A stretch of DNA of 60,139 nucleotides, counting the filler, from Jimgerdemannia flammicorona (taxonomy: Eukaryota): the NCBI GenBank assembly GCA_003990765.1. It is 2 parts of 2 records of this genome, joined end to end, with 100 filler letters (N's around TTAATTAATTAA, not from the genome) between each part and the next. Parts side by side here need not be neighbours in the genome. Positions count along the whole stretch, not along the records: positions 1 to 30,020 come from RBNJ01000458.1; positions 30,121 to 60,139 come from RBNJ01000459.1. One strand, 5' to 3'. The position numbers and the translations under genes are program-made. Shown here piece after piece: positions 20,598-42,530 of the stretch; the first letter of the stretch is position 1, and every line of letters begins with the position of its first letter. Below the pieces are notes generated by a model. It was not told the DNA's origin, searched no databases, and saw nothing but the letters and a program-made list of their open reading frames with translations.

Positions 20598-23096
20598 TGT
20601 AATGATTCTAGTTTCTTTAAGAGAAAGTGACTAAATCTGGAAGTATTCTGATAGATCTAAAGTAGCTTAAATATATACTTATAGATTTAAAAAATCTTAA
20701 AGAATTTCAGGAGAAAAATAAGCTATACTTTATTCAAATAGAAAAAAGGAATATTTATATAAATCTGAAAGAAGAATCTGGAAGGATCTTAAGTATGAAA
20801 AAAAAAGAGCCAAAAAATAGATTCTTAGTAAAGATAATTAATAGAATTCTATAATATTTCAAAAGGTTCTATAGCTAGCTAAGATAAGGTACTTAGTGCT
20901 GAAAAAAGCAAAAATGTTTTAGTAGAGTCTTGATACTAAGAGAGAATTTCTAAATATTTAGAAGATACTGGAACATTATAGAATATTCAAGAAAATATAA
21001 GAAAAGACTAGAGAAAAAGCTATAAAAATAAACTATAACTAAGAAATACTAAGAAATTATTACAGTTTGTCTTAGAAAAATCTTTAGAATATCTCAAAAT
21101 AGTGAAGTTCTCTTTTTAGAACTTGATGACAATCTTTAGGCTTAATTTAATAAGTATATCAAATTAGCAGATCTTCTCTAGCTTAGTTTCAACAAGTATA
21201 TAGACTAGAGTTAAATTAGAAAAAGCTTATAATCTTCTTAATAATGGGTTTTGAATAGATATTTCTCCTAAATATTACAATGATCAAGTAGCTTTTAGCA
21301 GATATCTCTCTCAAAGTATATTATAAATAGACTTGTCTTTTGTTTTTAACTCAGATTTCGGACTGAGGTTTATTTACTCTTGTCTCTAGGGTATTTTATA
21401 TAAGTATATTACTATATATCTTATAATTATAGAATATGTAGTAAGGCTAGTCATAGAAGATATGATCTCTTGTTTTTTCTAGAAACAGTATACCTAGCTA
21501 GAACAGGATACTAGACTGAAATAGTATACTAAACTGGAACAGTATGTTCTGATTTGGTATGTCTGATTATTTATATAAATTAGTAGTATATGTGGGTAAC
21601 TATGTGAGGTCACACTCCTTTCTCTACTACTTTATCAGTTACAAGGTTTGGTAGGCAATCTTCTGAGTCCCCTTTCTCTTATTGTTACCCCCTCTACCTT
21701 AGGTTAGTTTGCTGTACCTGTGAGGGCATGGTGGAAGGAGGGCAATGGTGTTGAGTTACTCTTTTATCAGTATTGGATCAGTGTCTTCTTCACTTTTTTG
21801 TAGTTTTCAGTACCTTTAGCTGTATCTGGGGTATACTCATTTTGGTACAGTGCCTTCTTTCTTTTACTATTACTAATAAGGAGTTGTCTTAGTGTGTCTC
21901 AGATTACATAGGGAGTCAGCTGACCTTGGGCATCAAGTGCCCAGTGCAGGTTACCTGCAGGTTCTCAGTACTTATGGTTGGGCCCTCTGGCTTTGGCAAG
22001 CTTCCTGGTGAGTGCAGTTTTGATATAGATGACTGTTTTTCAGATAATATTGGAATGGGAGGGGAGATGGCCATCACAGATAAGAGGAAGGGTAATTATG
22101 GTGAACCAGTAGAGTGCCAGGCTGGGGGTGGTCATTGAGGCTGGGGCAGGTACTGCTTTAGTGGGATCTTTTGATTGATGCAGAGTAGTTAGGTGGTAGG
22201 TGTCTCTCATGGCTTTTTTTGGCAATTCAGTGGGTTGGGCCCTGGTCATTGGGGGGGGGTTGGGGGGCCCAAGGCTACCCATTTCAGGTGTCTTGACTGT
22301 ACTTAACTAGAACTAAGAGCTGATATAGCAATGTGATTGAGGCCTGCAGGCTTGAGTAGTGGGATATTGGAGGTCTCCTCCCACCTCACATATAAGTTCT
22401 CTACTCATCTCATCTGGGAGAACTAGGCCCTATCAACTGTGATATACTTTGATGAGGATTTTTCTTTGCCAGTCATTCTCTTTGGGGTGGCAGAGGCTAT
22501 TCTATTTAGCTTGGGCATGGCCTTGTACATACATTGGGGTTTTGGGCATGTGCTTTCAGTCATTAGCATATGGCTGAGTTCCCCCTGGTGGTAGGGAGAG
22601 CATGGTGTGCAGAATGAGGTGTGGGCCAATTAGGCCCTGCTGCACCTGGCATGGTCCAGCTGCTGGACAATAGCTAGCTTAGGTTTAATGGGGGGGCAGT
22701 GCTTGGTGGGTGGTGGGGGAGGGTTTTGGCCTATATAGTCTAGGTTCCCTTCCAATAAAATTCCGCGGGACTCTGAGTCCATAAAACAAAAAGGTAACTA
22801 TGTGAGGTAACTATGCTAACTGTTCTTTGTATGCCATTTAACTATACTAAGTATTCGCTCGTCGTTAGGATTTAATTTGCGAAGTCACGATTGACACCAC
22901 GACTAGGACGTCATGAGAACTCAACCCGACACTCGCTGTACTAGCCTGGTCCTTGTATTTTATGCAAGCCAAACCTTCCACATTATCCATGGTTTCTTGT
23001 GTGTTGTAATTAATCATGCGATTTCTTGTATGATGTAGATGTTTTCAGGCTGCGTTCTCAGGTCGCGATTTCTTGAGCGTCTCAAGCCACATCGCA
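20598..23096 (-). repeat. Long (~1.3 kb without the insert) 5' LTR of gypsy A
   Basis: Begins TGCGATG (other family members begin TGTGATG) and ends ATTACA next to the PBS. Its TATA/AATAAA core and downstream sequence (21130-21403) align with 51111-51360. Confidence 0.65.
21611..22792 (+). mobile_element. Non-autonomous, non-coding poly(A) retroposon (SINE-like), copy 1
   Basis: Perfect 16-bp TSD ggtaactatgtgaggt (21595-21610 and 22793-22808); AATAAA at 22754 and an A-rich tail; homologous along its length to 40762-41960. Confidence 0.9.
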
Positions 23097-23409
23097 CATG
23101 GACATGGTTATTTCACTTTTTGACAACCCACATACATGCACCAAATACCATTCAGTAAAACAAATTTACGAGACAGAAAATAATTGACTACAATACATTT
23201 ATTACAACTATTCGGCAAATCATTGACCCTTGACATCAAGTAACGCCTCCAGCTGCCTAAAATCAACGGTATCTTAGGTAATTTCTGACGTACTACCCGC
23301 CTCCACGTGACGACAGAATAACTGATCCCCAACGACACAACGCAACACGGCCTGTATGACCCCGAGCACAGCCGTAAACATTTTCACGCGATCACCTAAC
23401 CCTGCCCAA

Positions 23410-24103
23410 CTATTTTTTCTTGGTTCTCTTGCACCTTGCCTTGGGCTTGTGCCAGTCCTCCGAGCCCTTGAAGACAATGCCCTTTTTTTTTTTTTTTTTT
23501 GGAAGACAGATCAGGATGATAATATGGTTAGAACAATATGGTACCCGTCGAGAAATATCGGGAAAAGAATGAACGATGGAGAGAAGCAGGAAGCAAGGCG
23601 CGCTCACCTCCTTGTCCAGGAACCATTTTAACTGATCTGTTGTGCAGATTATGGCCCTGTATTTGGTGCACAACTTCACATAAAGTTCATCGATATCAAT
23701 TGGCTAACATAAAAATAAAAAAACATAAAACATAAAAAATTAATTACACCTCATCGGTCAGTATTTCATCAAAACTACCTCACTTCCCCCAGCATGCATA
23801 CCTCATAGCGCAACATCATCCCATACATGACTTTGTCCTTTCTCACAAACCCCGCCAGCTGCTTATGAACAACATGGAAGTCTTTGTCGTCGTCGTCCTC
23901 ATTCTCGTTGTCCCATTCGCCTTTGCTTAACCGATCGTTCTTCACAAAATCATCCGCCTTGCGCGTGCCCCCAGGAACCCTGAGAATATGGTGCCAATTG
24001 AAGTAATGTACTACTACATTATCGATGGCATCGACAATAATGCCGCCACAGACGCCACTGCTGTTACAAAGGCGTTGTCTGTCGCCACGAAAACCCAGCC
24101 ATC
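23410..24103 (-). CDS. SLX4: SLX4 (structure-specific endonuclease subunit), last three exons with the conserved C-terminal domain; exons 24103-23802, 23703-23608, 23481-23410; 5' part not resolved
   Basis: GT-AG splicing gives an open frame ...HKQLAGFVRKDKVMYGMMLRYE|PIDIDELYVKLCTKYRAIICTTDQLKWFLDKE|GIVFKGSEDWHKPKARCKRTKKK*, matching the Slx4 CCD pattern (F/YIR..P.LY..IL.YEPI.L.EL...L..FLD..GI.F). Confidence 0.8.
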
Positions 24104-25039
24104 CTAAAAAAAAAAAAAAAAAAAAAAATCGTTTGTATGAGAAATATCAGTAACTCGTCGAGATCTAGGGCAAGTTCACAACCTCCCTATCACCCGCGTA
24201 TGATCCTGGAGCACGGCGACGACTGGGTTGTCCACCGGCAAGCCCTTGTATTTTTAGGTACTATACGAATTCAAGCAACCTCTCAACACAGCTGTTTGCA
24301 CTTACCTAAGGCTCGGCCACCGTTCCGATCCCCGATAAGCTGACGAATATAACCGTGGTCGTGGCGAACTGTGAACGGGCCCAAGAAGTTGCTCATCTGG
24401 ATTGCAAGAACCGAAAGAGAGTGTTGAAAGAAATGGAATCGAGCACAATGCATAACTCCATCGTGAGTGGTCGAGGTGATTCGAAGCACAGTGGACAGAG
24501 TCATTCACCAAGGGGACAGAGAGAGTAGCATTGTAGTCGCTTTCACAGGGGACTGAGCCTCATGTGAACAAGCCCGTGACAGGCCAACCAGAAATTTGTC
24601 GATCGGCCTCAAAGCGTATGAGTTTGTCGACCAGTCCGAATTTAATGATCCTGGTCTTGTTGGATTCCCTCTTTACCAGGGGAATACAACAGGCCGGCAA
24701 ACATTAATGACGGACATGTTTCTGTCGAGGTATACGAGTTAAGGTTGGGTCTGAACAGTCTCAAAACCCAACCCCGTCCATCTGTATAACTTGACATCAA
24801 CTTAACGTTTTTTGGCCCGTTGTATGGTCGACAAATATAAAATTAAATATACTTATACAGAGATTTTCTTGTGCTGGCTCGCATCCATAGCTAGAGCAGG
24901 CTACTGCAATTATACATACATTATGAGTTTATTGGGTATTCCCAAATCTTTTGGTATTGTCAGTTTTGTACCATTCCAGCATTATAGTTCCTCCGACGTC
25001 TGCAGAAATGACCAAGGAATTTTTGTACCTCTGCTAGTC

Positions 25040-27750
25040 TCCAGGAAACTTTATCAAACATTTGGCTAGATTCCACTACCTTCTCACAGATAATCAATGC
25101 CTGTTTGTATAGCGGCTCGGCCTCGCCGTACTCGTTCTGGCTTTGGCATTTTGACGGATCTTTAGCGACTTTTCAAACAGCAGTCGTGCTTGCATTATCC
25201 ACGCGTTGTCTGCATGATTTGATCCAAACGTCTTCTCGCGGATCTCCAGCGCCCGTATGTACAGCGGCTCAGCAGAGCTTGGCCAAAATGTTCATTGACC
25301 ATGCGGTGCGTGGGTTCTCTGATCCAAATATCTTCTCGTGGATCGCCAACACCCTTTCGAAAAGCGCCTTGGCCTTCTTGTAATTGTACTGAATTTTGTA
25401 AACCTCAGCCAAATGGGTCGTCGGCCATACGGTGAGGGTTCTCTGACCCCAACATCTTCTCACGGATCGCCACCACCCTTTCGAATAGCGCCTCGGCCTC
25501 GTTGAACCTGCTCTGACTTCTATAAACCTCAGCCAACTTGTCCATTGACCATGTGGTGTGTGGGTTCACATCTTCGCACGGATCTCGAACAGCGGCTCGG
25601 CCTCGTTGTACTTGCGCTGAATTGTATAAATTGTTCAGTGGTCACGAGGTGTATGGTGCTCTGATCCCATTTTCTTTTCACTGTTCTCCAGCGCCACTTT
25701 GGATATCGACTTGGCCTCTTCGTATATATATACTTGCCAAATTGTTCAGTGACTGCGTAGTGTCCGAATGATATAATTCCAACACCTTCTGGCGGATTGT
25801 CAGCGCCTGATTGCACAGCCGTTCGGCCTTGTCGTATTTGCCCTGATTCTTTTAAAGTATGGTCAGATTTTTTAGTGACTCCGCGGTGTCCTCGTAGTTT
25901 AGGCCCAATGTCTCCTCGCGGATCGTCAGTGCTCGTTGGTACAGTGGCTCAGCCTCGTCGTACTTGGGAGGGTGGCCAAACATTCAAGTGACTTGCGGTA
26001 TCCAGGTATTGCGGCTTCAGCTCCTTCTCATGGATCGCCAGTGCCTGTTTGTACAGCTCCTCGGCCTCAACATAATTGCCCTGATGCAGGTAAAGTGCAG
26101 CGATATTGGCCAATGACATCACGATGTCCAAATGCTTTGAGCCATATACCGCCTTCGAAACTCCAACGGAGAACTGCGTGAGTTTCTCCAAGCCAAAATA
26201 CACTTAATGTTTGAGTTGGAACCGAATTGCTCGATCCAGAAGCCCGCTGAGATATTTCAATATGAGCAGTTTCTGGCTGTTGTCGTCGAGCATTGTGAAA
26301 AAGAAATATATGAGAAAGCTATGCGTTCATGATTCTTCGAGTTAGAGGAGCATATATATCGGAGTCAGAAAAGCAAGCCTCGTTATTAAGCGCAATGACG
26401 AGATTGCGTGCCAAACACAGTCTCTCCTTATCATTCATTATATCGTAAATGACGTTCTGCACGAGGTGGTGTATCGTCAACAGGTCGCACGCTGGACCAC
26501 TTCATTGTCTTTGACGTTCTCGCATGTTTGCGTCACCAAGGAAAATTTGATAAACACCCTAATGGCTCTTTCGATGGCTTGGCGGGGCCCGCTGTTCTCT
26601 TCGCTTGATGATGAAGTTGCGGAATTTGATAAAAGCTTGAGGATAGAGTACTGTCGTTTGAAAAAGCACACAGAAATATTTTCCGCTTGGAGGAAGGCGC
26701 ATGCTTTCAAAATCTTCACGGCCGTTGAGTTTTTGGTTTGGATATGTTCGAGTGAGAGTTGACAGACAGTTGCGACCATGTGTTTATAGACGTCAGAGTT
26801 GTCTTCGTTTTTGTATCTGAGCCGGATGATGCGTTCCTTGCTCTCCTTAAACATGTTCAGATAGTCTTTGAAGGAGCACTGCGCGTCTTCGACGTAGGCA
26901 CGTGCGAGGGCGATTGCGAGGGGCATGTAATCGAGCACGACGGCGATCTCTTGGGCATCAAGGAAACATGCACCTTGCTGGTCGATTGAATCCATGGACG
27001 AAACACCGATAAGAAGAAATATTGCCTCCCGTTCTTGCATCTTGTTGGCGTCAATCTCCATCGTCACCTTGCTTGGAGGGATATTTAAACGCGTGGTGAA
27101 AATGATGTCGCCTCCAGCGCGCGGCAATTACCTGAAAACCTTCTCATTCGTCTCGTAGTCGCCAGCATTGTTCAAGAGAAGCAGCTATTTAGTCCTCTCT
27201 TGAAGCCAAGAACGAACCCATCTAATGGCTTTCACCTCCGAATCTCCCTCCAGTATGGTCTCCTCGTTGAGGCCTAGACTAATGGCCAGTTTGCGGAACG
27301 ACAGGATGGCCGTGCTCCTGCTATCCACCTCTAGCCAGAAAACAAAATCGTACGCGGCGCTGTGGTGGTAACAGTATCGAAGCATCAATTGAGTCTTGCT
27401 CATGCCTCCCTGTCCTGTGAGTGCCAATTTTTTGCATTCGCTGGAAGGGTTGCTACAGCTGAGCGCTTGCTCCATATTTGATATGACGCTTGAACGATTG
27501 ACAAAGGCGTGGTTCTCGGCGGGGACGCCGTGAAAGTAGGATTCGATGTTTGGAGTTATTTTTTTGGAGGGGGATATGTGGTGGAATTAGCCACGGTGCC
27601 CTTGGAATTTTGACGCGATGTAGCAATGCGGTCTCCATGCTCATTGTTAGTCGTTTGCTGACTGCTGGAAACTTTGGTTCTGGTACTGACATCAATGGCG
27701 TTACTTTTCGGAGGACATGGCTGGAAATTAAAGATTCGGCTACAGCGTAA
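25040..27750 (-). pseudogene. Fungal NLR-like NB-ARC + TPR-repeat pseudogene
   Basis: P-loop LALTGQGGMSKTQL, YDFVFWL, Walker B region *LLLLNNA, IIFTTR, LDYMPLAIALA; TPRs such as LANIAALYLHQGNYVEAEELYKQALAIHEKEL and YKKAKALFERVLAIHEKIFGSENPRTA; several in-frame stops and frameshifts. Confidence 0.9.
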
Positions 27751-28307: not shown

Positions 28308-28600
28308 TAGTGCTCCGAATGGATCAGAGTAATCCGAATCTGATCCGAATCAATTTTATACTCTGAATTGACTCAAAACGCAAAATGAATCTGACGTTTT
28401 GCCTTATAACTCTGTGATGCATCATCCGAATTTAGCCTTCTTGAGCTCATTAGAAATATGTGATATAGGACCTTCTAACAAGCTCAATAATATTAAAATT
28501 GGATGATTTGGATCAATCCAAATCGATTCAAATCAAATCCGAATCAATCCGAATTATGACTTTTTAGTTTCAAGAGATATATATATATTATTAGTAATAT
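28308..28600. mobile_element. hAT-type MITE end (same family as 28912-29261), less mutated, truncated by the retroposon insertion
   Basis: Starts TAGTGCTCCGAA; repeated subterminal (T)CCGAAT motifs; internal hairpin similar to that of the complete copy. Confidence 0.6.
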
Positions 28601-28605
28601 AGTTA

Positions 28606-29874
28606 GTCACTCCTTTCTCCACTATTATACTAATCATAAGGTTTTGGTATGTAACCTTCTGAGTCCCTTTTCCACAACTTTTATCCCCTCTGCCTCAGGT
28701 TGGTTTGCTGTACCTGTTGCAGAATAGTGGGAGAGAGGCAATGGTGATGAGTTGTCCTTGTATTGGTGTCTGATCAGTGCTTCCTCTACTTTTTTATAGT
28801 TTCTGGTACCTCTAGCTGTATTTGAAGTATACTCATTTTGGTGCAGCACTTTCTTTCTTTTGCCATCATCAATAAGGTATCATCTTAGTATATTATAAGC
28901 TATATAGAAAGTAGTGCTCTCAACAAATTGAATCAAAGATCCAATTTGATTCAAGATTTAATTTGAATTCTATTTTTTGAAATATAATAACTCAATGAAA
29001 AAACATCCAAATTTAATAATCTTTAGCTTGTTAGATTTCTCTATATAAAAGGAATCTAACAAGCTAAAGATCATTAAATTTGGATATGTTTTTATTTAGT
29101 TATTATATTTCTAAAAATAGTGTTTGAATCAGACCCTCAATTCAATTCAAATTCAATTCAATTCAAACTTGATTTAAATTGAAAAATTCTCAATTTAATT
29201 TGATTTGAATGATCCTCAATTTGATTCAATTCAAATTGATTTGATTCATTTGAGAGCACTAATAGGGAGTCAGTCAACCTTAGGTATCAAGTACTAGTAT
29301 AGATTATCTGCAGATCTTCAGTATCTATAGTGGGGTCCTCTGAGCTTTAGCAAGCTTCCTGATAAGCACAGTTTTGACATAGATGACTTTTTTTCAGTTA
29401 AAATCAGGATGAGAGAGAAGATAGTTATCACAGATTGAAAGAAGAGTGATTATGATAAATTAGTAGAATATTAGACTAGTGAGAGTCATTAGAGTTAATA
29501 TGAGTACTATATTGGTGGGGTCTTTTAATTAGTGCAGAGTAGTTAGATAGTAGGTGTCACTCTCAGTAACTCTCAATAATATGTAAGATTAGGCTCCAAT
29601 TATTGGAAGTTATTAGAGGGCCCAAGACTACCCAGATTAGGTATCTTGACTATACTTAACTAGAACTGAGAGCTGATATGGCAATATGATTAAGACTTAT
29701 AGACTTGAGTAGTGAGGTATTAGAGATCTTCTCTTATCTTATATATAAGTTCTCTCTTTATCTTATCAGAGAGAACTAGATCCTATTCACTATTCTATTT
29801 TTTTAGGGAGTTTTTCTTTATCTGTTGCTCTATTTGTGATAGCAGAGATTATTCTATTCAGCTTCAGTATGGTT

Positions 29875-29876
<2 letters not shown>
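28606..29876 (+). mobile_element. Non-autonomous retroposon copy 3, older; interrupted by a MITE and cut by a LINE poly(A) end
   Basis: Same 5' start (cactcctttctccacta); colinear with 21611-22525. Confidence 0.85.
28912..29261. mobile_element. hAT-superfamily MITE, complete
   Basis: 12-bp TIR TAGTGCTCTCAA...TTGAGAGCACTA; 8-bp TSD atagaaag/atagggag (uninterrupted host copies read atagggag); long internal palindrome ~28970-29120. Confidence 0.88.
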
Positions 29877-29929
<53 letters not shown>

Positions 29930-32900
29930 GTCACTTGGACTTCTCTTTATTACTCACACTCTATAGATAATACATAAATGCCTCCATCCTCCCTAACCAA
30001 TTCCTTTTTGTTTTTTTTTCNNNNNNNNNNNNNNNNNNNNNNNNNNNNNNNNNNNNNNNNNNNNTTAATTAATTAANNNNNNNNNNNNNNNNNNNNNNNN
30101 NNNNNNNNNNNNNNNNNNNNCCCCCCTCAACCTCCCCCTGCCTGAGCATCACCCAATTACCCACTACCCAAATCCTCCCACCACTCTTCTGGGAGATATA
30201 CTCCACCAGACTCCTGCAGTTCCCCCACCCATCTCCCAATCTTGCCACCAGCTATTCAAAATGTCCAACAGCAACCATTCCCAACAGGCCACCTTATCAC
30301 CAACTCTGATCTGACACCCTTCCTCAAAGACATGAACCCAATGCCCAGCCAATCCAACCCACATAGCCAAAGCCCAACCAAGGGTCAGCTATTCATCCCC
30401 AACCCCACCCACTAGTCGCCAGCAAAGCTCTCTCCATCTCCCCCCACCCTCTCTCTCTAAGGCACCCAGCCCTACCTGGTCTATAATACATCTCCAAAAC
30501 TCCTCCAAAACCTTACATTCGCCAAGCCAATGTTCAGGCATTTGTACCAATCCTCTCTCCTGACCAACATTGAAACAATCCTCACACTTAAAAACTCCAC
30601 CATCCACCAAGTGTCCAGACTAATAGTTCAACATCACATTCCGCCATAGGACCTGCTACCACACTACCCAGAACTTGGGGGGCAGCCACTGCCACACCCA
30701 TTTGCTCCAAAGCCAGAGTCCATTCCAATCCCACTCCTCACTGATTCCAACCCTCTGCCAGGCTTCTGGCCACAGGTCCCCACCTAGGCCTCGCAGACAC
30801 TCCAGACTCTCACCAAGCTGAAAGTCCTCCACTAGAACACCACCCAACAGAAGCCTGTCTCATCACCATATTCGTGGTCCCCAAACCTCCTCAGCTTCAC
30901 CACCTTGCCACTGAAGTCTAATTTTCTTAGCACCATCCACCGCTCCCCACCAAAAGCCCATAAACCTCATCCTCCTGCTCCCTTCCATGGCCACCATTGC
31001 AAGCAGGTCACTGGAGCCACCACGTGGGGAGTACCAAACCTCCCACAACCTCTGCATGAGTGGTACCCACTCCCAACCCCTGAGCTCACTTGCCCTCTAC
31101 AGCCACCAGGCTCTCAGATATAGAAGCTGCTTAGTAAAGTCCACTAGGCCCAGTCCACCTCTTTCCAAGGGCAGTGTGAGCACCTTCCAACCAACCTGGC
31201 TTCACTGCCCTCCCCAGATCCATGACCTTGCCATCTTCAACAACCCCTTGACTACCCAGGTTGGGAAATCCAAATGATATCCAACATACCACAGCTTCGG
31301 CATCCAGTACACATTCAACACCATCACTCTTCCAGCAAGAGACATATGCTGGCCTCCCCATCGCAGTAGAACATCACCCCACTCTAGAAGTTTACTGTCC
31401 CACCATACCTAGGGAAGAAGAGATCCAAACACCGAGAAGTAGATCCCCAAGTAATGCACTGGTTCACCAGCCAGTACCACCATCCCAATAACATTACCAC
31501 CAACAATTCCAGCACTCAGCACCAGCATCTCACATTTGTGCCAGTTTAGTTTAGCACCAGAACCCTGCTCGTACCATTCTATAGTCCTCTATAACTCTCT
31601 CACATCTCCCAAGGAGCCCAGCCCAACCACCATATCATCAGCAAAGGCCCCCACCTTCCAGTTAACCCCTAAAATGTCCAAACCTCCAATCTGATACCGA
31701 ATTCTGTCCAGTAGTGGCTCCAGGGAAAGGGCATACAATATGGGTGACAAGGGATCCCCTTGTAGTACCCCACGTCCCAGGGGAAAGGTCACCCCCCTGT
31801 GGTCATTGATGACCAATACCACCTAACTGTCCTCCAAGAGGCTGATTAATGATCCTCGGAACCCTGGGGGGATACCAATCTGCTTCAGCACTCCCTCCAG
31901 CCATATTCTTCATACTCTATCATAAGCCTTCTCTTGGTCCAGAAATACCAATCTGCCATCCACTTCTGTCACCTGGGCACCTTCAATCACTCCATAAATC
32001 CAGGCTGTCTTATCTCGAATTAACTGACCGCTGACAAACCCACGTTGCTCTACACCAAGCACCTGCTGAGCGATTCCTTGCAGCCTCATTACCAAGATTT
32101 TAGTCACCAGTTTGCGGTCTATGTCGAGAAGCATAATTGGCTGCCAGTTCTTCTAGTTCTCTCACCTCCCCTTGTTCTTATAGAGCAAAGAGACTAGCCC
32201 TAAGCACTGTCCCCCAATCCAAGCACTAGACCAGAGAACTCTATCACACATAGCAGTCATTTCCTCTAGCACCTCACCCACCCCAGTCATCTTCTGCCAA
32301 AAATCCCAGAGAAGTCCATCCTCTCCCGGGGCCGTCCCCTTACTCATTGAGGCCACAACCCTACAAATTTCCTTGCCACTCACTGGGTCTCTCAATGCCC
32401 TAAGTCCCATCACAGGGTCCAGGTGCCAATCCCCCAGCTGCCTTTCAATGTCCAGAGCATCCAATCCCCCTTCCTCCTCACTCCAAAGATTCCCCCACCA
32501 GGTTCTCAATAGGCCCAGAATTGCTAGAGTCCCCACCACCAGCTTGCCATTCACGTCCAAAACTCCCTCCCACCGCTGTCTCGTTTGTTGTACTTGTAAC
32601 AACTGTGACAAGAACCTAGTAGGCCTCTCCCCCTCCTCAAGCCCCTGCCACTGCAATCAAGCTACTATTCTCTGCAACTATACCTCCTCCTCTCTTCATA
32701 GCACCCCTTTGAGCTCCTCCACCTCCTGCCGGGTTCTTGCAATACACCAATCAGTCCCGTCCCCATCCTCCAGTACACCTGCCCATCTCTCTATAAGTGC
32801 TGCCAGATGCTGCAAGGCCCACAGCACCTGCTGCCTTCACTGGGAACACTTTCCTTTCCCTGCTTCCCTCCAATACCTCTGAGCATTCACCTTCAGTCTT

Positions 32901-35779
32901 CTCCAGCAGTCCCCAATCTCCAGACCTTATTCCCGCCACCTGCCAATATTTCCAACCACCTCCATTTCTCAACCCTCCCACAATACTCTATCCTCCAATA
33001 AGGAAGAATTTAGCTACCAATGTCCAGGCCCATCCTCATTTTCCCCAAACCTCTCCCCTCCAAGCAGCCCCCAGTGATCAGACTACGGACACCATACTAC
33101 TTCCAGTACTGACCAGACATCAGCTCCCCAACACTCTGCCATTAGAACCCAGTCAATCCTGGAGCCCAGCCCTGCTGCCCAGTGAGTGTACACCTGCTGA
33201 TCAGCCCAAAAATGTCTTCCTGAGTCTACTAGAGAACACAACCTCTCCATCTCCAACCAGTCACCCAACCCACCACTTTCACCCCATACACCTCTCCCTC
33301 TATCAGTTCTGTCCATCTCATTATCCTGTACCATGTTGAAGTCACCCCCCATACAGTCTAGCCCAACTTCTCTCAATACACCAGCCTCTTTCAATCTGCA
33401 AATCCATTCCACCCTCTCCCCTCTCTCAGCTGGGCAGTAACAAGACCCAACTGTCAGCAAGCCCCATCCAGGCCTCTTCCACACTCCCCACACCACCCGA
33501 GACCCCCAATGTCCAATATCCCCAATGTCCCCCATCCCTTTCTGAATGAGAATACACACTTTCCCCCTCCAAACAGCTGCACCCCCCCATTTCTTAGTCC
33601 AACTCTGTAAGTCCACATCTGCCTCATAACGAACATTCTGCAATAAGAAGAGATCTGCATTTAGTCCCTTAAGCCAACCAAATATATACTTCCTCCTAGC
33701 CACCCCCTGTAACCCATTAATGTTCAATGAGAATATCCTAGTTATACTATTCATATTGAAGAAATATTACAATAGAGACCCCAACCTATAATTCCATACT
33801 CATCTCATCCCCTGCCAGATCCAAGTGCCACTCCACTTCCAAGTCACCCTCCGCATTATCCTGAGCATCCAGTGCCCCCAAGATTTCCTGACATTCCACC
33901 CTATCCACTTCCTCCATATCCGCCTGGTAGTCTAAGCAGACTGCATGCCACTTCTCCAGTCTCTTCCTTGAGTTCCACAAGAAAAGTGCCCTATTGCTTG
34001 CAATCCTCCTAAGTTCCTCCTCTTGCTGATCATCAACTTGATATTCAACCAACTCCAGGAGGACAGCCAGGATCTCATTCCTCATCTTCCTTGACACCTC
34101 TTCCCCCTGAAGTATCTCCTCCCAATGCTTCTCCTCTATCACCCTGAAGTCCTCACCCCCCAGCTCTTCAGCTGCTACCCCTTCCAGGGTCTTCCACATC
34201 CACTTCTCCTCATTCACCGCCTCTGTCACCCCCTGAGCAATCTGTCCCCCATCTACCTCAGGGTCCACCAGCACGCTCCTCCTCACTGACTCATCCCACT
34301 CCTCATCCAACACATCCATCAGCTCCTCCTCCCCCTCTGCTCCATCTGGAACACTATATTGAGGGTGCACACTCTCACCCATTTCGGCATCTGCCTCCAA
34401 ATTGCTCTCCCTCCCCTCCCCCACTTCAATCCAAGCCCCACCCTGGACCATCTCTCTCCCCTCAGCCCAGGCACTCTTCTGCAATCCTGCAACTCCCTCC
34501 TCGGAGCTTCCACTGGCCCTACCCCCACCCAACTTCACCAACAGCTCCTTCTGGATCTTCCTCCCCTGCATCTTCTCTCAGGCCCCCTTCTCCATCTGGA
34601 CCCTCTTTCCATCCACCTCTCCCACCACTGTCCTGGCTTCAAACTCCTTCCAGGCCAATCTCCTCCTTACAACTGCCCCTTCCAGATCCTCCAGAGCCTC
34701 CAACAGGTCCTCCTCCTCCTCCTGGATCCCCTTCACCCTTGTGACCTTATACTCTACTGGTCCCCACCTCAGCATTACTGGCCAGTCCCTCGACTTCCCC
34801 ATATTCTCCTTCCCAGCCAGCCTCACCCTGACATCAACATCGCCAGTTCTAAGCTCTGTACCCTCCCAGACCTTAAACCCAATATCTACAATCTCACCAT
34901 ACTCCTTGATCGCCTCCACAACCAACTCCCTGGTCCTCTTCTTTGATATGGTGGGAAGATCCAACATCATCAACTGCACCACTCAGGGGTCCCAGTGCAT
35001 ATACCGGGCCATAGGGACCACAACCCCACTAACTATCACCTCCTTCTCCATGGCTGCCAACAAGGCGTCTTCCTCCTCAAACCCCACCTCAACCCCTTCC
35101 TTTCCCCTCAAAAACTTCACCAATGCTGCTCCCTTAGCCTCCTGTGCCACCAGCCCCAAAATTATCCTCACCGTCACTGCCAAGCCCCAGAAGCACATTG
35201 TGACCATGAATTCTGACCTCAACTTCTTGAGTAATGGGGCCAACACCATGCCCATTACCCCATCGGTCAGGTCCCCAGGCCTTATACCCACTCCCAGTTC
35301 TGAATTGCCAATCACTATCACATCTGGATTTTTTGCCAGATCCCCAGTCACAGCCCCATCAATAGTCACATCTCCAGCCCCTACTCCCACTCCTCCTCTA
35401 CCACCTGAGACTCCCCTGGGTACACCTTCCTATCCCACAGCAGCAGCTGTCGATGTCATTCCTAGGCCTAGCCAACCATTAAGGCTGGAGGTCATCTTTC
35501 CCATTCTGACCTTGTCAGTGAAGGTCAACCTCTCTCCTCCTCTCTGCCTTAGCCTGCTCCTCCCTCTACCACCAGGTCCTCCGCTAGCCATCGAGGCCCC
35601 CAGCATTCCCAAACCATCTCTCCTCCTCCCCACCTGTTGCCAGCCAAAGGTGCTGTCACCCTCCTGGCCAGTATGCTCACCAGTTTGATTGTTGCCATCC
35701 ATGTTGATAGTCACTGGACACCGAAAATATAGTAAAAAGTATTGTCTGAGTCTTGTGTCATCTGAATGTTACTGGTGAA
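29877..35779 (-). mobile_element. LINE copy 3, subfamily B, apparently full length (spans the scaffold gap)
   Basis: Poly(T) 29877-29926 followed by the family 3' end (tagtcacttggac); ORF2 from 33754 (MNSITRIFSLNINGL...GGDFNMV), RT and zf-RVT; ORF1 ~35610-33786; conserved 5' leader. Confidence 0.93.
30021..30120. other. Assembly gap with artificial TTAATTAATTAA linker
   Basis: 100-nt N-run with a central six-frame-stop 12-mer at 30065-30076. Confidence 0.97.
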
Positions 35780-38700
35780 AGAGTGTGAGAGTGGTATAGC
35801 TTCTAGTGAAAGGGGTTCCTATGGTGACTATTGTAGAGATAAGGAGGAGGGTTGAGAAAGTTATGGCTAAGTATGAAGTGGTGGTCAATATAGGGTTTAG
35901 GGTCTGGGAAGAGACCTCTTTCTGAACAGAGGATGTTGATATCCAGATTTGATTGATAGAGAGAGAGACTATTGGAAAGACTTATGGTTGACCTTCAGTG
36001 ATAGTGTGGAGAGCCTTTGTATACTAGGTGACAAGGATTAAGAGGAGTGAGAAGGAGGAGAAAGACTTGTTAGAGGTACTGAAAGAGCTAAATAGTATAG
36101 TAGAGCAGAGGAAGAAGGCTTGGAAGATATATGTAGAGTTGATATATTTGGAGATTATTGATGGAAGATATATCTATATTAATAAGAGGCTATGGAAGAG
36201 GTCCCAAGGATGTAAGAGACAGAGAGAGCTATTGGTGAGCCTAGAGGGAAAGGAGAAGAGAATTGCTAGTGATACTGAGGATACTAAAGGAGCCAAGATA
36301 AGTGTCTGGGTCAGCAGAAGTAGAGAAAATATAGAGGTGGGTCTGGAGAAGATCAGAAAGGTACTGAGTAAGGACTAGAGAGGTAGAGCTAGCTCTCTGG
36401 TGGATAGAGTATCATAGATTATAGCTCTGATAGAAGACCTGCCTAGAGTATCATGAGAACTTTGAAGAAAAGAAAAATAGGAAACTAGCTGAACTTCTGG
36501 TTAGATTAGAGATAAAGAAGGTTGAAGAGGAGGAGGTGGCTATGGAATACAACTTGGACTTAGCTCAGGATGAGATGAATGTGAAGTTGTAAAGGATACA
36601 TATGAATTTTAATATTATTTCCTATAAATAGTACAATCAACATTTTTTCTTTGAATATAAATAGATTGTGGGATTCAGTTAGGCATCAGAACATTTTTAC
36701 TTAGCTGAAGAGCTTAGAGGCTGATCTCTTTCCTTTGCAGGATGTTAGATATAAAGATGACTTGGACAGACTGTAATAAATGACAGAATGGAGAGGGGTA
36801 GTAGTTTGAAAGAGCAAGATTGGGATCCTGGTTCAGAGAGGTAGAGGGGAGATCTGAGATACAAGGAACTGGAGAGACAAGCTGGTCTGAGGAGAATGGA
36901 TTTGACCAGGTTGAGAGCCAGTTATAGTGGAGTCCTGCTACTGCTCTACTGTATGTGGTGAGAGAGTAGAATAGATGATAGAACTTTAGGAGAATAGGGC
37001 CCTTGTAGAGATAGGAGTGGACATTCTTGAAGGGGACTTTAATATGGTTCAGGATGTGCTAGTTGATAGAACAGATGAAGGGTGGGGGGCTGAGATTAGG
37101 AGCAGGAGTCTGGAGTTATAAGAGAAAGTAGAGAGACTGAGCTCACTGGTGAATACTAGTAGGGGGTTCTGAGAAGATGGAAGAGTTTATATATACTGGA
37201 CAAATAGTCTAGAGATAAGGATTGATTGAGTGCTGATGGCAGTCTGCTGGGGTTTGGATGTTTGAAAGTCACTAGAGGCTGAGTAGTGTCTATGGTCTGA
37301 TTATTAGAGGCTGTTAGGGTAGGGTCACTTTGGGAGGAGTGAGAATGGGTCTGAACATTAGTGTCTCAATTCCTCTTTATTGGCTGAGAAGGTGTTGTGG
37401 GATAAGTGAGCAGAGGATATTCAGCAGAGGTTGGAGGATTGGATATAAGAGGATGTCCCAGTTGATATCTGATAGGTGAGGTTGAAGGAGACTACTAAGA
37501 TCTACTAGAGTGTAGCTAATAAGATAGTTAGAAGATAGAAGAGGAGAAGAGTGACCTGGGCTTTAGTGAGATTGACTGGACTTTTAAAAGATTGGGCAGG
37601 ACTTTTGGTCCTAGAGAAGATGGAGGACTGGAGGGTGATACAGGTGAAACTAGAGGTTATAGAGCTATAACAGATGTTGAGGGAGGAGAAGGAGACATAG
37701 GTGCAGAGTTTGGCTATAAAGCTGTACTGGTAGGGGCTAGAGGAGGGAGAGAGATCCTCTAAGTACCTTTCAAGGACCCTTTAGGCAAGAAGAGTACAGC
37801 AGAGATGAGAGGGGGTTCTCAATTCTGATAGTTTGCTGGTATATAGTTTATAAGATATTCTGAGCTTGCTGAAAGAGAGGTAAAGTGGTTTGTGGAGTAA
37901 GGAGGAGAGTGGGGCTGATACTACTACCATAGAATATGCTTTGGAGAAATAGCATCTACCATAAGTGAATGGACTGAACAGCTTAGTAGTACTGGTATAG
38001 GAGGAGGAAATTTGTCAGATTCTTATTATAACTATGCCAAATATAGCACTGGAAGAGGATAGTCTGCCCTGGGACTTTTAGATGAAGATGGTAGAAGTTT
38101 CAGGAGTACTGAGAGAGTTAATAGCACTTTGTAACTTAGTATTGCAGTCAGGGAGATAGGTGGGTAAGCAGGATCTGAGACTAGTGGTACTGCTTTTTAA
38201 GAATAAGGGTAGGAGAGAGGACTGGAAGAACTGGCAGCCAATTATGCTGCTGAATATAGATAGAAAGTTGATCACTAAGGTAGTAGTAGTAATGCTGCAA
38301 AAGGTAACCCAGCAAGTCTTGGGAAAGGAGCAGTGAGGTTTTATAGAGGGCTGACTAATTAGAGATGATACAGTCTGGGTATATGATATTATTGAAGAGA
38401 CTCAAGCCTGTAGACTAGATGGGAGATTGGTCTTCTTAGATCAGAAGAAAGTATATGACTATATTCACCCGATCTGGCTGATAAAGGTACTGAATAGGAT
38501 TGGTATCCCTTAGTAGTTTCAAGAGATAATAATCAGTCTACTGGAAGGGAGTAGAGTGGCACTTATATATAATGGACATAAAGGGATAGCATTCTCTCTG
38601 GGTAAGGGTATTCTCCAGGGGAACCCACTGTCATCTATTTTATATACTCTATCCTTAGAGCTATTGATGGATAAAATCTGGTAGAAGATAGTAGAGCTCT

Positions 38701-39814
38701 TAGTATTGGGTATTGTGTGAAAAATTGGAGCCTTTGCAGATGATATAGTGGTTAGCCTGAGATTGATTACAGATATTAAGGAGCTCCAGAAAATAGTAGA
38801 GTGGTATGAGGTATATTCTGAGGCTAAACTTAACTAATATAAATATAAAACAATAGTACTAAACAATGACCTAGTAAAAGAGAATGTCATTGGAACAATT
38901 GTTTCTATTAAAGAGACTGTGAGGTACTTAGACATCTATCTTTTAGTATATGGGTCAGTTCTGCTGAGTCATTGATAGAAACAGTAGGTGGCTATCTGGG
39001 GAGAGGCCCTGCAGAGTTAGAGAGGCTGTCAAATGTCTTTAGTAGAGTATATTATGATTCTGAATATCTACTAGCTGCCTAAGTTATAGTACCTGGTATA
39101 TCATCTAGACTTTCTAGCCTAGGTAGTGAAGAGACTATTGAAGTTGGCTAAAGGTTGAATCTAGGCTGAGTGGAGGAGTTGGATTAGCTGGAAAATCCTA
39201 TTACTGCTAGTAGCTAGAGGAGGTCTTGGGCTGGTTAACTTTTTAAAGAGGCTATATTGTTTGAGAGTATGGTGGCTGAAGAGAGCAGTGGAATTGAGGA
39301 GTAGTAGCTAGGCTTCTTTAATGAAGAAGGTCTGAGAGATGAGATACCCACCAAGAGATTCTACTAGAGATCTACTGTCCTTGGTTGGGCTTCAAAATAG
39401 TGAGCATATGTGGTATAAGAGTTTCTGATAGAGAATAGTTGATAGGACTCACTATATTGAAATTTTCTGACAGAGAGATAAAGGGGAGATACTCTGGGGT
39501 CTGGTAATATAGAGATAAGACAGAGTATTACTAGAGGGTACCCTCTTTTTAGACTTTAATATTAGTGATAAGGTTGAGTACCAAAGAGAGTTAGGACAGG
39601 ATGTATGGTCTGGTAGTTGATAGGTAGCAGATATTGGAAAAGAGTAAGACTGAGATAGAATCTGAGCCTAGAGTATAGAGGTGAGATGATGGTTACCACC
39701 TAAGTACTAGATGGTCTGGTGGCATATACTATAGAGAAATGTTATGTTCAACTTTCACTCAGGTCACCTTATAGAAAGAAGGAGCTTTGACTGTGAGAAG
39801 TGCTATAATGTAGG

Positions 39815-42530
39815 TGTAAGCACACAACCTCCAAGTCACCAAAATCATATAGTATCCTCAGAACTAATTTGGAAACCACATGCAAGACTACAAAACAAGT
39901 TACTGAAGAGATCATCTGGTTATACAAAATATGCCAGCAAGCACAAGAACTCACCACCAAGATATAAGAATACTAGAAGAAGTACTACAACCATAAGACT
40001 AACTCTGAACCACTATAACTAGTTTGGTATACTATACTATTACAAAAGAAAACCAAAAGTACCAAACTCAAATCAAGACAAGAAGAACCCTATCTCATCT
40101 ACTAAAAGGTTCACAAACTGCACTTATTAACTCAAGATCAAGATATATCACAACTATACAAGACCTCATTACTTAGCAGAAGCAAAACACATTTGAACAA
40201 CTTCATTCGCTCTATCTGTGTCACCTCCATTGGAGAGTAACAGATACTTCATCTGAACTCAAGAAAGCCAACATTGTCAAAACCAATCTCAAGCCATCCA
40301 CATGACAGATATTACTACTAGAAATTGTCTCAGATTATAGAAAATATCATTTCCAAGAGATTTGAACCCCCAGCTATAACATTGGAAGCCCTTGCCCTAG
40401 ATGAGAATGGCCAGTCCTCGCAAATGCACCAGTAGACCAAAAAAAAAGAGAACCAAGACCTGTTATCCTTGTACAACTACTGCCACTAAGGACAGCCTTA
40501 ATCTTACAAGAGATAGAAGTGACAATACCTTGAAACTGATGATATCAGAAGTCAGAAAACTGCTCAGACTTTGCCAGCAATGATGTCATCAATAGTGATG
40601 TCATCAAAGACTACCCAGATAGTGTCTAAACCTATAAATAGCTTAGCAGTCATAGTATAGTTAGATTAGTCTTGTACAACATGACTGTGAACTGACTCAG
40701 TAGTCAGATAATCTCCTAATATATCAGATCACACTTGTACTATATGACTACATTCTGACTCTTTTTTTTTTTTTTTTTTTTTTTTTGTTTAATAGACTCT
40801 ATGTCCCGCAGATTTTTATTGGAAGGGAACCTAGACTATATAGGCCAAAACCCTCCCCCACCACCCATCAAGCACTGCCCTCCCATTAACCTAGACTAGC
40901 TATTGTCCAGCAGCTTGACCATGCCAGACGCAGCAGGGCAAAGTAGCCTGCACCTCATTCTGTGCACCATGCTCTCCCTACTACCAGGGGAAACCCAGCC
41001 ATATGCCAACGACCGAAAGCGCACGCCCGAGAACCCAACATATGTACAAGGCCACACCCGAGCCGAATAGAATAGCCCCTACCACCCCAAAGAGAATGAC
41101 AGACAAAAAAAAAGCCCTCATCAAAGCACAACATAGTGGGTAGGGCCTGGTTCTCCCAGTCAAGGTGAGTAGAGGACTTATATGTGAGGTGGGAGGAGAC
41201 CCCCAATACCCCACTACTCAAGCCTGTAGGCCTCGATCATGTTGCTGTATCAGCTCCCAGTTCCAGTTGAGTGTAGCCAAGATGTCTGAAATGGGTAGCC
41301 TCGGGCCCCTCAATCCCCCCTGACAACCAGGGCCCAACCCCATGAATCGCCAAAAGAAGCCGAGAGTGACACCTACTACCTAATCACACCGCACCAATCA
41401 AAAGGCCCCACTGAAGCAGCACCCACCCCAGCCCCGATGACCGCCCCCAGCCTGGCACCCTACTGGTTCATCATAATCACCCTTCCTCCTATCTGTGATG
41501 GCCATCTCCTCTCCCATCCTGACATCACCCAAAAAACAGTCATCTATGCCAGAACTGCACTCGCCGGGAAGCTCGCCAAAGCCAGAGGGCCCCACCATAG
41601 GCACCGAGGATCTGCAGGTAACCTATACTGAGCACTTAATGCCCAAGGTCGGCCGACTCCCTATGTAGCCTGAGACACACCGAGACAACTCCTTGTTGGC
41701 GATAGCAAAAGGAAGAAGGCACTGCACCAAAATGGGTACACCCCAGATGCAGCTGAAGGTACCAGAATCCGCAAAAAAGTGGAGAAATCACTGATCCAAC
41801 ACTGATAAAGGGGCAACTCATTACTATTGCCCTCCTCCCACTATGCTCCTATAGACACAACAAACCAACCCGAGGTAGAGGGGGTAATATTAGGGGAAAG
41901 GGGACTCAGAAGATTGCCTACCAAACCTTGTGACCAGTAAGGTAGTGGAGAAAGAAGCTTACTACATTCTGACTCAGCAAGGTACTAAGTACTATATCCA
42001 TATTTAGTATAGTCTAGATAGCTCCTCACTAGTATAAATACCCCCTCCCCCAGACCTCAGAATCTCAGACTTGAAAGACCTGAACAATCCAAACACAACT
42101 CCTGAGTACTTTCCCACAATATTCCTTTACACAACTACTCTTAGTATAGCAATATCATGAATAGCAAATAAACCTATTTAATAACCTATAAACTACTCTT
42201 AAGTAAATCTGCTCTCCATTAGATCCCACTCCTAACCCTGTCATAAAATTTCCTAATTGGGTATTGTCTGTAGTGATACATCAATTCAACTAAGCTGGTC
42301 TTAGTTTCTTGAACTTCCTGAAATACAAAAAATCCTGAACATCCAGAACTAGTCTGAAAAAGAACTTTGGTTGAGACATCAATCCGATCTAGAAATCAAT
42401 AAGCATAGAGAATGTACTCTATATGAAATTGATCTTGATTATAAGAAAACAGTCTTCCAGAACATCCAGAACTTCCAGAAACCCCTTCCAAAACTACATA
42501 ATAGTTACCCTAAAAAGCAACCCTCTTACA
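39815..42530 (+). mobile_element. Long solo LTR (~1.5 kb without the nested retroposon) containing a decayed ORF
   Basis: TGTAAG...CTTACA termini; perfect 5-bp TSD GTAGG (39810-39814 and 42531-42535) splitting the LINE zf-RVT; TATAAATA at 42033 and AATAAA at ~42167; no internal terminal direct repeats seen. Confidence 0.85.
40762..41960 (-). mobile_element. Non-autonomous retroposon copy 2 (youngest)
   Basis: Perfect 15-bp TSD actacattctgactc (40747-40761 and 41961-41975); 25-nt poly(A) tail; retains many CpGs. Confidence 0.93.

Follow-up and report, generated by a model that had tools for sequence, protein, structure and literature searches.

Pol II-type SINE-like retroposons that are not derived from tRNA and that carry AAUAAA are abundant in the powdery mildew Blumeria, with Eg-R1 and Egh24 as examples, and SINE-class sequences are reported to account for 11% of the genome (PMC6022598, PMC4641428). 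The Eg-R1 account describes more than 3000 copies, a first stretch of 88 nt common to another non-LTR family, LINE dependence, and expression as polyadenylated RNA, from which transcription by Pol II is inferred for Eg-R1 (PMC6022598). In Aspergillus fumigatus, the AfuSINE families are described as non-autonomous and LINE-dependent, with short flanking direct repeats (PMC5063351). A first-pass annotation of the DNA studied here held fungal SINEs to be few and generally short, which is too strong given the abundance of Eg-R1 and Egh24 as these reports present it (PMC6022598, PMC4641428).

Here, we analyzed a stretch of 60,139 nt from Jimgerdemannia flammicorona (GCA_003990765.1), referred to as the window, which joins parts of two scaffolds and carries three copies of a non-coding element. 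This element is an ordinary, fresh example of a retroposon kind already described in fungi and opens no new mechanism. It represents a well-delimited, presumably LINE-dependent and Pol II-type non-coding retroposon outside the sole fungal genus studied for such elements, and it supplies exact ends, target duplications (TSDs), and an age series. The element is also useful for repeat annotation of the genome because such elements easily stay unclassified.

Copies, Ends, and Relative Ages

An in-window blastn comparison confirmed that the three copies are a genuine homologous family at the annotated coordinates. Copy 1 (21611..22792, plus strand, 1182 nt) and copy 3 (40762..41960, minus strand, 1199 nt including the tail) are full length and share 83.7% identity over 1179 nt (E 0.0). 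Copy 2, on the plus strand, is made up of a 5′ block (28606..28889, element positions ~1-283), which matches copy 1 at 76.3% over 283 nt (E 2e-52), and a second block (29262..29876, element positions ~298-910), which matches it at 71.8% over 620 nt (E 1.5e-85); its 3′ end is lost, and its blastn identity to the other copies is 70-77%. Nothing else in the 60 kb window matched the element body by blastn.

The 5′ ends of all three copies coincide to 1-4 nt. Their common 5′ text, C(T/C)TCCTTTCTC, begins at 21615, 28610, and 41957 in copies 1, 2, and 3, after 4, 4, and 3 bases, respectively, that the copies do not share, and the element measures ~1.16 kb plus its tail. Identity between copies 1 and 3 is uniform along the length (75-89% per 100 nt), so that conservation singles out no promoter block.

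CpG counts (26 in copy 3, 2 in copy 1, and 0 in copy 2) and GC contents (51%, 47%, and 31%, in the same order) indicate that copy 3 is the youngest, copy 1 intermediate, and copy 2 the oldest, in agreement with the earlier suggestion that the insertions are of several ages. Copy 2 shows a strong excess of C>T and G>A.

Insertion Marks and a Candidate Empty Site

Copy 1 is flanked by an exact 16/16 repeat, GGTAACTATGTGAGGT, at 21595..21610 on the 5′ side and 22793..22808 on the 3′ side (both plus strand); AATAAA is located at 22754-22759 (+), and a short tail, AAAACAAAAA (22783-22792, +), abuts the TSD. Copy 3 is flanked by an exact 15/15 repeat, GAGTCAGAATGTAGT as read on the element strand, at 41961..41975 on the 5′ side and 40747..40761 on the 3′ side (both minus strand), with AATAAA at 40815-40820 (−) and a tail of pure A25 at 40762-40786 (−), which likewise abuts the TSD. 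The distance from AATAAA to the A-tail is 23-28 nt in these two copies, and their TSDs, which differ in sequence, fall within the range of roughly 7-20 bp of LINE-mobilised retroposons. Copy 3 contains no direct and no inverted repeats of at least 14 nt, and hence neither LTRs nor terminal inverted repeats. Given the 26 CpGs, the pure A25, and the perfect TSD of copy 3, the family could mark recent LINE activity.

Contigs from two public runs (X1 and X2) were mapped at no less than 80% likeness on 20900-23500, flanks included. This yielded 62 contigs in X1 and 83 in X2, where contig depth does not equal copy number, and 36 of the 62 and 51 of the 83 were <90% alike, flanks included. A single X1 contig links 21593 to 22793 with 32 nt on its shorter side and skips 1199 nt, compared with 1198 predicted; it corresponds to the empty site of copy 1 within 1 nt of prediction and may derive from a paralogue of the flanking repeat. 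The alignment of another copy in the public-run contigs begins at 21612, with unlike sequence beyond, and a further 5′ end was found at one loose contig end (..CCAG/CTCCTTTCTC). At the 3′ side, A17 stands straight after 22792 at one loose contig end. Contig depth peaks over the first ~160 nt of the element in both runs. None of the public runs recorded as RNA contained the stretch.

These data bear out the main structural claims of the first-pass annotation, namely that the three copies begin within a few bases of one another, that this 5′ end is fixed (3/3 window copies and two contig ends agree), and that two copies combine AATAAA, an A-tail, and perfect 15-16 bp TSDs. The reading of these marks as the signature of target-primed insertion gains from the empty-site contig.

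Coding Potential and RNA Features

Copies 1 and 3 contain no sense ORF >93 aa, and their longest ORFs lie at different places. Of 63 ORFs scanned against Pfam, the 6 that belong to the element had 0 hits. The 93-aa sense ORF matched 1 protein among 1.84 billion representatives, and a 110-aa antisense ORF matched 1 protein from 5 candidates, each of these proteins being short and unnamed. An ORF of 54-66 aa is open in both younger copies (start at 21974 in copy 1); its pN/pS of 0.44 compared with 0.90 and 0.62 off-frame is based on 21 differences and is not significant. The ORF scans, Pfam, the protein searches, and pN/pS therefore all agree with the proposed lack of a conserved long ORF. A processed pseudogene of a coding gene is not supported, with no parent ORF remnant or protein family disclosed by Pfam and the two protein searches.

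ARAGORN detected no tRNA genes in the window and Rfam gave no match at the gathering score, in line with the annotated lack of a tRNA or 5S head; in E-value mode, Rfam listed 2 matches per copy (E 0.76-3.2), which differed between copies and were at chance level. The internal T runs already annotated are present, with 12 runs of at least 4 in copy 1 and 8 in copy 3, the longest being T9, and a T6 at position 183-185 is kept in 3/3 copies. The conservation of these T4-T9 runs argues against Pol III. We found no tandem, direct, or inverted internal repeats in the element, TRF reporting the A-tail alone. Folding gave no sign of selected RNA structure at the ends of copies 1 and 3 (Z +1.27, +0.97, -0.96, and +0.20), and the 5′ end of copy 2 (Z -2.61) was the sole end with so low a value.

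Resident LINEs as Candidate Helpers

LINE A (9814..15432, plus strand), of the candidate helper family, has the 3′ end AATAAAGGGCAGTCCTAGTGACTATA followed by A28. LINE B (29877..35790, minus strand; 5′ limit approximate) belongs to the same family, with 78% identity to LINE A over 5499 nt. Its A-tail reads as T50 (29877-29926), with AATAAA 20 nt ahead of the tail, and an APE endonuclease ORF (Exo_endo_phos) is located at 33083-33766(−). The tail-to-body join of LINE B spans the scaffold join, where the linker N44-TTAATTAATTAA-N44 occupies 30021-30120. A decayed, 5′-truncated remnant of the A/B family (43000..43090, plus strand; start indefinite) ends with AATAAAGGAGTCCAAGTAACTATA and A29 (tail 43062-43090). 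The arrangement of AATAAA, 20 nt, and a long A-tail is found at 3/3 visible 3′ ends of the A/B family.

LINE C (1..5600, minus strand; limits approximate) represents a related family with ~65% nt identity to LINEs A and B by self-blast, and its 3′ end lies beyond the window. Its RT ORF at 1285-2211(−) matched Pfam RVT_1 (E 1.7e-26); among solved structures, human LINE-1 ORF2p is the closest chain (E 2e-23), ahead of R2 (E 8e-14). The LINE ORFs in the window are broken.

Copies 1 and 3 were compared with LINEs A, B, C, and D and with the stretch at 47000-50500 by blastn (word size 7) and tblastx. The last of these five stretches is Gypsy-like. The searches returned A-tail matches and chance-level hits only, which upholds the claim that the element bears no likeness to the window LINEs. 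None of these LINEs shares either end of the element, or any 3′ sequence beyond AATAAA and the A-tail, so that helpers are proposed only from their presence and similar 3′ layout; on these grounds, the resident APE-type LINEs with an L1-ORF2p-like RT are the likely helpers.

Proposed Mode of Propagation

The family is probably a non-autonomous, non-coding, poly(A)-tailed non-LTR retroposon that depends on a LINE and has a SINE-like lifestyle while not being a Pol III SINE. A source copy would be transcribed from its own first base, most likely by Pol II, with promoter elements in the 5′ region. The transcript would be cleaved and polyadenylated 23-28 nt past AATAAA, a layout that is observed and whose use is presumed. 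This poly(A) RNA could be captured in trans by the endonuclease/RT of a resident APE-type LINE, the helper RNA having a like AATAAA and poly(A) end, and target-primed reverse transcription would give a full-length copy with the 15-16 bp target duplication seen here. Insertions occurred at different times, with later decay chiefly C-to-T, as in other window repeats.

Alternatively, one host gene with strong expression, for an lncRNA or an mRNA, could have given rise to all copies as retrocopies; its start site would then define their fixed 5′ end, and the copies would lack a promoter and leave no daughters. LINE-made retrocopies resemble the element in their 5′ end at the transcript start, AATAAA, A-tail, and TSDs, marks that are equally expected under both readings, and the uniform identity of copies 1 and 3, with no promoter block conserved above the rest, also fits a retrocopy. 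We nevertheless consider this origin unlikely. Three insertions of different ages lie within 20 kb, and the diverged contigs (36/62 and 51/83 <90% alike, flanks included) are numerous; together, the differing ages and the diverged contigs in two runs suggest a large, long-lived family, and they point to one that sustains itself, unlike retrocopies. The element further differs from retrocopies in that the searches turned up neither a parent gene nor any coding remnant or related protein for it, Pfam and the protein searches covering the ORFs and blastn disclosing no intron-bearing parent within the window.

It is very unlikely that a LINE outside the window gave rise to the element by deletion or contributed it as a sub-genomic part, for instance a 5′ UTR joined to a 3′ UTR or a long 3′ UTR that has a start site of its own. 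Deletion derivatives of LINEs are common elsewhere, and the comparison of LINE ends is incomplete because LINE C extends beyond the window at its 3′ end and LINE D has a decayed one. Against this origin, the blastn and tblastx searches of the five stretches gave only the A-tail and chance hits described above, and the 3/3 visible 3′ ends of the A/B family are unlike that of the element. LINE C also follows LINE A collinearly up to a point ~200 nt before the tail, which leaves no space for a foreign 3′ part of 1.2 kb.

It is hardly credible that the family consists of Pol III SINEs whose head escaped recognition and whose transcribed unit is the first ~180 nt: the depth peak of X1 and X2 across the initial ~160 nt, the T6 at 183-185 in 3/3 copies, and a word near position 115 of copy 3, GCATAGTGG, which we take to be A-box-like, would suit it, yet ARAGORN and Rfam found no tRNA, 5S, 7SL, or snRNA match, the A-box-like word lies ~100 nt from the 5′ end, is changed in both other copies, and lacks an accompanying B box, and full-length copies extend 1 kb past at least 7 T runs to AATAAA and the tail, which a Pol III transcript would be unable to span. 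A classical Pol III SINE was rejected for its missing tRNA/7SL/5S head and the internal terminators of T4 or longer.

Comparison with Described Systems

The element is best read as working like Eg-R1 and Egh24 of Blumeria, with no detectable sequence relation to Eg-R1 by primers and comparison by eye. As far as the Eg-R1 report describes them, the Blumeria elements and the present one are alike in being non-coding and non-LTR, in having a defined 5′ end and no Pol III A/B boxes, and in carrying internal T stretches, AAUAAA near the 3′ end, and TSDs (PMC6022598). A search with two Eg-R1 primers that tolerated up to 3 mismatches returned 0 matches, which is a weak homology test, and the ends of the Eg-R1 consensus printed in the supplement differ by eye from those of the element (PMC6022598). 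The element is longer (~1.16 kb compared with 670 bp), and the Eg-R1 report gives genomic copies without A-tails (PMC6022598), whereas copy 3 ends in A25.

The higher contig depth across the initial ~160 nt could parallel the 88-nt head shared by Eg-R1, and a small peptide from the 54-66 aa ORF would resemble ROPIP1, which has been proposed on Eg-R1. An extended reading would make the first ~160 nt a portable promoter head common to more abundant families, have the 54-66 aa ORF produce a small peptide, and class the family as a self-promoting Pol II lncRNA-type retroposon; this appears improbable. If true, Pol II SINE-like elements would be a recurrent fungal invention and not a peculiarity of Blumeria.

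Classical tRNA- or 5S-derived fungal SINEs such as AfuSINE have Pol III heads, whereas the element is headless and has many T runs. The SVA elements of hominids are kilobase-sized, transcribed by Pol II, and end in AATAAA and an A-tail. SVA is described as a non-autonomous non-LTR element that LINE-1 proteins mobilise in trans and that bears the corresponding structural hallmarks (PMC3287187). The present element is alike in being non-autonomous and non-LTR with LINE-type insertion marks. In contrast, SVA was assembled from older repeats and includes a VNTR, and the element has no internal repeats or parts shared with other window repeats. An SVA-like composite was rejected, with no VNTR, no internal repeats, and no part in common with other window repeats.

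Decay and Damage of the Older Copies

The body of copy 1 appears heavily decayed, yet its TSD is perfect. Either the mutations predate the insertion, or mutation is limited to repeats; both would fit this pattern.

Copy 2 ends at about element position 910, against the T50 tail of the minus-strand LINE B that cuts it, and its lost 3′ part was not located within the window. The two blocks of copy 2 are separated by a foldback, MITE-like insertion of ~370 bp (28890..29261, no strand assigned), with terminal inverted repeats TAGTGCTCTCAA and TTGAGAGCACTA at 28912-28923 and 29250-29261, respectively, and inner arms of 98 nt.

Element Copies, Ends, and Insertion Marks

Direct reading, alignment, and in-window blastn revealed three homologous copies of the ~1.2 kb non-coding element, positioned where the first-pass annotation had placed them: copy 1 at 21611-22792 (+), copy 2 at 28606-29876 (+), and copy 3 at 40762-41960 (-). 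Copies 1 and 3 are 83.7% identical over 1179 nt (E down to 0), and copy 2 matches in two blocks of 76.3% over 283 nt and 71.8% over 620 nt, the weakest E value being 2e-52; blastn found no further match to the element body within the 60 kb window. The common text C(T/C)TCCTTTCTC starts at 21615, 28610, and 41957 in copies 1, 2, and 3, and is preceded by only 4, 4, and 3 bases, respectively, which are unlike between copies. The 5′ ends therefore agree within a few bases in all three copies, in line with the fixed 5′ end that had been claimed.

Copy 1 is bounded by the target-site duplication (TSD) GGTAACTATGTGAGGT (21595-21610 and 22793-22808, 16/16 matching) and copy 3 by GAGTCAGAATGTAGT (41961-41975 and 40747-40761, 15/15 matching). 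Each of these copies has one AATAAA, at element position 1144 in copy 1 and 1141 in copy 3, followed after 23 nt by the tail AAAACAAAAA in the former and after 28 nt by a pure A25 tail in the latter, so that the signal, A-tail, and perfect 15-16 bp TSDs reported for two copies are all present. Copy 2 is broken at 28890-29261 by a foldback element and stops at element position ~910, abutting T50, the tail of a LINE on the minus strand; the lost 3′ part of copy 2 was not found anywhere in the window. The element inserts in full length, with its 5′ end fixed, poly(A) 23-28 nt past AATAAA, and a target duplication of 15-16 bp, and has done so on three or more occasions spread over a long time.

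The foldback insertion itself is MITE-like, ~370 bp long, with terminal inverted repeats (TIRs) TAGTGCTCTCAA / TTGAGAGCACTA and inner arms of 98 nt with 82% complementarity. Just upstream of copy 2, at 28406-28509, are fragments of weak similarity to it.

Ages and Decay of the Copies

Copy 3 contains 26 CpG dinucleotides at a GC content of 51%, copy 1 contains 2 at 47%, and copy 2 has none at 31%. Polarised changes disclosed an excess of C>T (57) and G>A (71) private to copy 2; the apparent excess of A>G (33) and T>C (30) in copy 3 is best explained by G/C lost in parallel from copies 1 and 2. Together, CpG, GC, and the polarised changes place the insertion of copy 2 first, then copy 1, then copy 3, upholding the earlier view that the copies are of several ages. 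This order agrees with the tails (lost in copy 2, short and impure in copy 1, pure A25 in copy 3) and with the secondary insertions in copy 2.

For CpG observed/expected, element copies and LINEs give 0.00-0.34 and the gene region (25000-27800) gives 1.02. Confinement of the CpG loss to repeats suggests cytosine methylation or deamination aimed at them, and C>T changes in copy 2 span every dinucleotide context, not CpG/CpA alone. Copies 1 and 3 differ by a K2P distance of 0.205, and the 16 bp TSD of copy 1 is nonetheless perfect; were the decay of ~23% of G/C sites to postdate insertion, the TSD pair, with 14 such sites, would have escaped change with an estimated probability of about 0.03. 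Such a decayed copy between perfect TSDs implies either that the changes predate insertion, coming from a CpG-poor source lineage, or that mutation spares unique flanks.

Coding Potential

The element is not a recognisable coding retrocopy. Its longest sense ORF is 81 aa in copy 1 and, at another position, 93 aa in copy 3, none of the six element ORFs scanned matched Pfam, and no named protein was found, bearing out the absence of a conserved long ORF. The 93-aa sense ORF matched one protein among 1.84 billion representatives and the 110-aa antisense ORF matched one of five candidates; both matched proteins are short and unnamed and are most simply other element copies. An ATG-started small ORF is open in copy 1 (54 aa, 21974-22138, +) and copy 3 (66 aa, 41398-41597, -) and destroyed in copy 2. 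Its pN/pS of 0.44, versus 0.90 and 0.62 off-frame, comes from 21 differences, and the constraint is not significant. An antisense frame is also open in copies 1 and 3 (88 and 110 aa).

Resident LINEs

The window consists mostly of repeats, and APE-type LINEs of the L1-ORF2p kind adjoin the element copies. LINE A (9814-15432, +) and LINE B (about 29877-35790, -) form one family, 78% identical over 5.5 kb, and are the candidate helpers; LINE C (about 1-5600, -) and LINE D (35790-39391, +) belong to a related family at ~65%. Domains carried by the LINEs of the window include an Exo_endo_phos endonuclease (33083-33766) and RVT_1 (1285-2211). Among solved structures, human LINE-1 ORF2p is closest to the LINE reverse transcriptase (E 2e-23), ahead of R2 (about 1e-13). 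A homologue search with this reverse transcriptase gave 16 hits.

Wherever a 3′ end of the A/B family is visible (three cases), AATAAA precedes a 20-nt stretch with (A/G)CTATA at its end and a tail of A28, A50, or A29. This layout of signal and tail is shared with the element, but the sequence differs. A derivative of a visible LINE was ruled out, as copies 1 and 3 compared by blastn (word size 7) and tblastx with LINEs A, B, C, and D and the Gypsy-like stretch 47000-50500 gave the A-tail and chance-level matches only. The claim that the element bears no similarity to the LINE body holds across these five stretches. Moreover, the collinearity of LINE C with LINE A extends to within about 200 nt of the tail, too close for a foreign 3′ part of 1.2 kb to fit.

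No TSDs were found for the LINE tails at 15405, 29877, and 43062. The element TSDs start with G (GGTAAC, GAGTCA), and the flanks past the three LINE tails start with G, T, and C; these sites, only five in number, indicate a nick site other than the T-rich L1 site. Positions 30021-30120, within the 3′ region of LINE B, hold TTAATTAATTAA between two runs of 44 N, an assembly linker. Because of this linker, the LINE tail that cuts copy 2 adjoins the body of LINE B only via scaffolding.

Pol III Features, Internal Repeats, and RNA Structure

A Pol III SINE was ruled out by the absence of a tRNA or Rfam head and by the many internal T runs, as the first-pass annotation had argued on both counts. 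ARAGORN detected no tRNA gene and Rfam, at the gathering score, no match in the whole window; with permissive Rfam settings, copies 1 and 3 returned two matches each (E 0.76-3.2), from unrelated families and unlike between the copies. Runs of at least four T number 12 in copy 1 and 8 in copy 3, and a T6 at position 183-185 is common to all three copies. A composite, LTR- or TIR-bearing element was likewise ruled out, with no direct or inverted repeat of at least 14 nt inside the element and TRF seeing the tail only.

The 5′ and 3′ 135-150 nt of copies 1 and 3 fold no better than shuffled sequence, and the element revealed neither a promoter block that is conserved nor an RNA fold under selection. 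A 5′ stem (alignment columns 2-19 with 120-142) is present in all three copies, and RNAalifold gives two-sided changes in 3 of 38 pairs. This stem is no evidence of selection, since a pyrimidine run pairs with a purine run and transitions leave G-U pairs by default.

The structural part of the first-pass reading is sound, and we infer the transcriptional part as follows. Pol II would transcribe the element from its first base using promoter elements carried inside it, AATAAA would direct cleavage and polyadenylation, and LINE protein would pick up the RNA in trans via its poly(A) end. As no other sequence is common to LINE and element, the relationship would be relaxed and L1/Alu-like, rather than one based on a shared 3′ stem.

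Further Copies in Public Sequencing Runs

Two public sequencing runs of one organism, X1 and X2 (shares of 0.10 and 0.06), contain parts of the stretch as contigs, which were aligned at ≥80% likeness on 20900-23500. Of the 62 contigs thus placed from X1, 36 are <90% alike, as are 51 of the 83 from X2, flanking repeats counted in. One X1 contig links 21593 straight to 22793, skipping 1199 nt versus the 1198 predicted for the element plus one TSD; this contig represents an empty site, either an allele of the copy 1 locus or one within a paralogue of the flanking repeat. In one contig copy, alignment begins at 21612, with unlike sequence outside that end, and one loose contig end reads CCAG followed by CTCCTTTCTC, which marks a further copy that shares this 5′ end but not the flank. 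Another loose end has A17 immediately past 22792. Differences between contigs and copy 1 are overwhelmingly transitions. The contig results therefore indicate that the family is multi-copy and diverged in the organism of X1 and X2.

In both runs, summed contig depth, which is neither copy number nor expression level, is greater over the element than over its flanks. Depth is far above that of the middle (8-47 in X2) towards both ends, at 21596-21769 (the first ~160 nt, with a maximum of 1795 in X2) and at 22292-22813 (the last ~500 nt); several contigs miss 66-248 nt internally. By analogy with the first 88 nt of Eg-R1 of Blumeria, shorter or related families may share the ends of the element. 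In a metagenome scan with a 17-nt motif of the conserved 5′ region, none of 120 loci was blastn-similar to copy 1 or copy 3 (E 1e-5), and these motif matches are chance.

Described Elements of Similar Kind

The nearest described kind is the Eg-R1/Egh24 group of Blumeria, and the element works like these. Eg-R1 is a 670-bp non-LTR element with >3000 copies, without A/B boxes, with internal poly(T), an AAUAAA signal, and TSDs; it is taken as a Pol II transcript because its polyadenylated RNA is expressed, and its first 88 nt are common to another non-LTR family (PMC6022598). The likeness is one of features, and no relation in sequence was found: by eye, the ends of the Eg-R1 consensus are unlike those of the element, and neither of two Eg-R1 primers occurs in the window. 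The SVA of hominids is a functional analogue (PMC3287187), but it is composite and the element is not.

The rarity that the first-pass annotation ascribed to fungal SINEs was overstated, given that SINE-class elements make up 11% of the Blumeria genome (PMC4641428). A second account describes Blumeria SINEs as the most widely transcribed TE order, with 29,964 annotated SINE loci (bioRxiv 10.64898/2026.05.04.722472). Three element motifs returned no paper from full-text literature, and the family may already bear a name in a repeat library such as Repbase, TREP, or Dfam. The element can help in annotation and points to fairly recent LINE activity; its general interest is modest.

Neighbouring Genes and Other Repeats

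An NLR-like host gene of NB-ARC/TPR_10-12 type occupies 25272-27586 (-), with TPR_10/TPR_12 identified by Pfam. Its reading as several ORFs points to introns or frameshifts. Ahead of the TPR repeats, a DUF7779/NB-ARC-like region is predicted, whose Atlas structure neighbours are mostly from Ascomycota, a tentative pointer to fungal DNA. Just past a LINE tail, at 43331-43678 (+), sits a fragment of the ELP3 N-terminal domain (E 2.5e-07) without the radical-SAM part after it, which may be a gene fragment or pseudogene; an OST4 gene (43799-44200, -; E 2.1e-15) adjoins it on the opposite strand. Two LTR remnants are also present, one Copia-like with RVT_2, Pol_BBD, and zf-CCHC (15397-19672, -) and one Gypsy-like with RVT_1 followed by the integrase domains rve and rve_3 (48250-50059, +).
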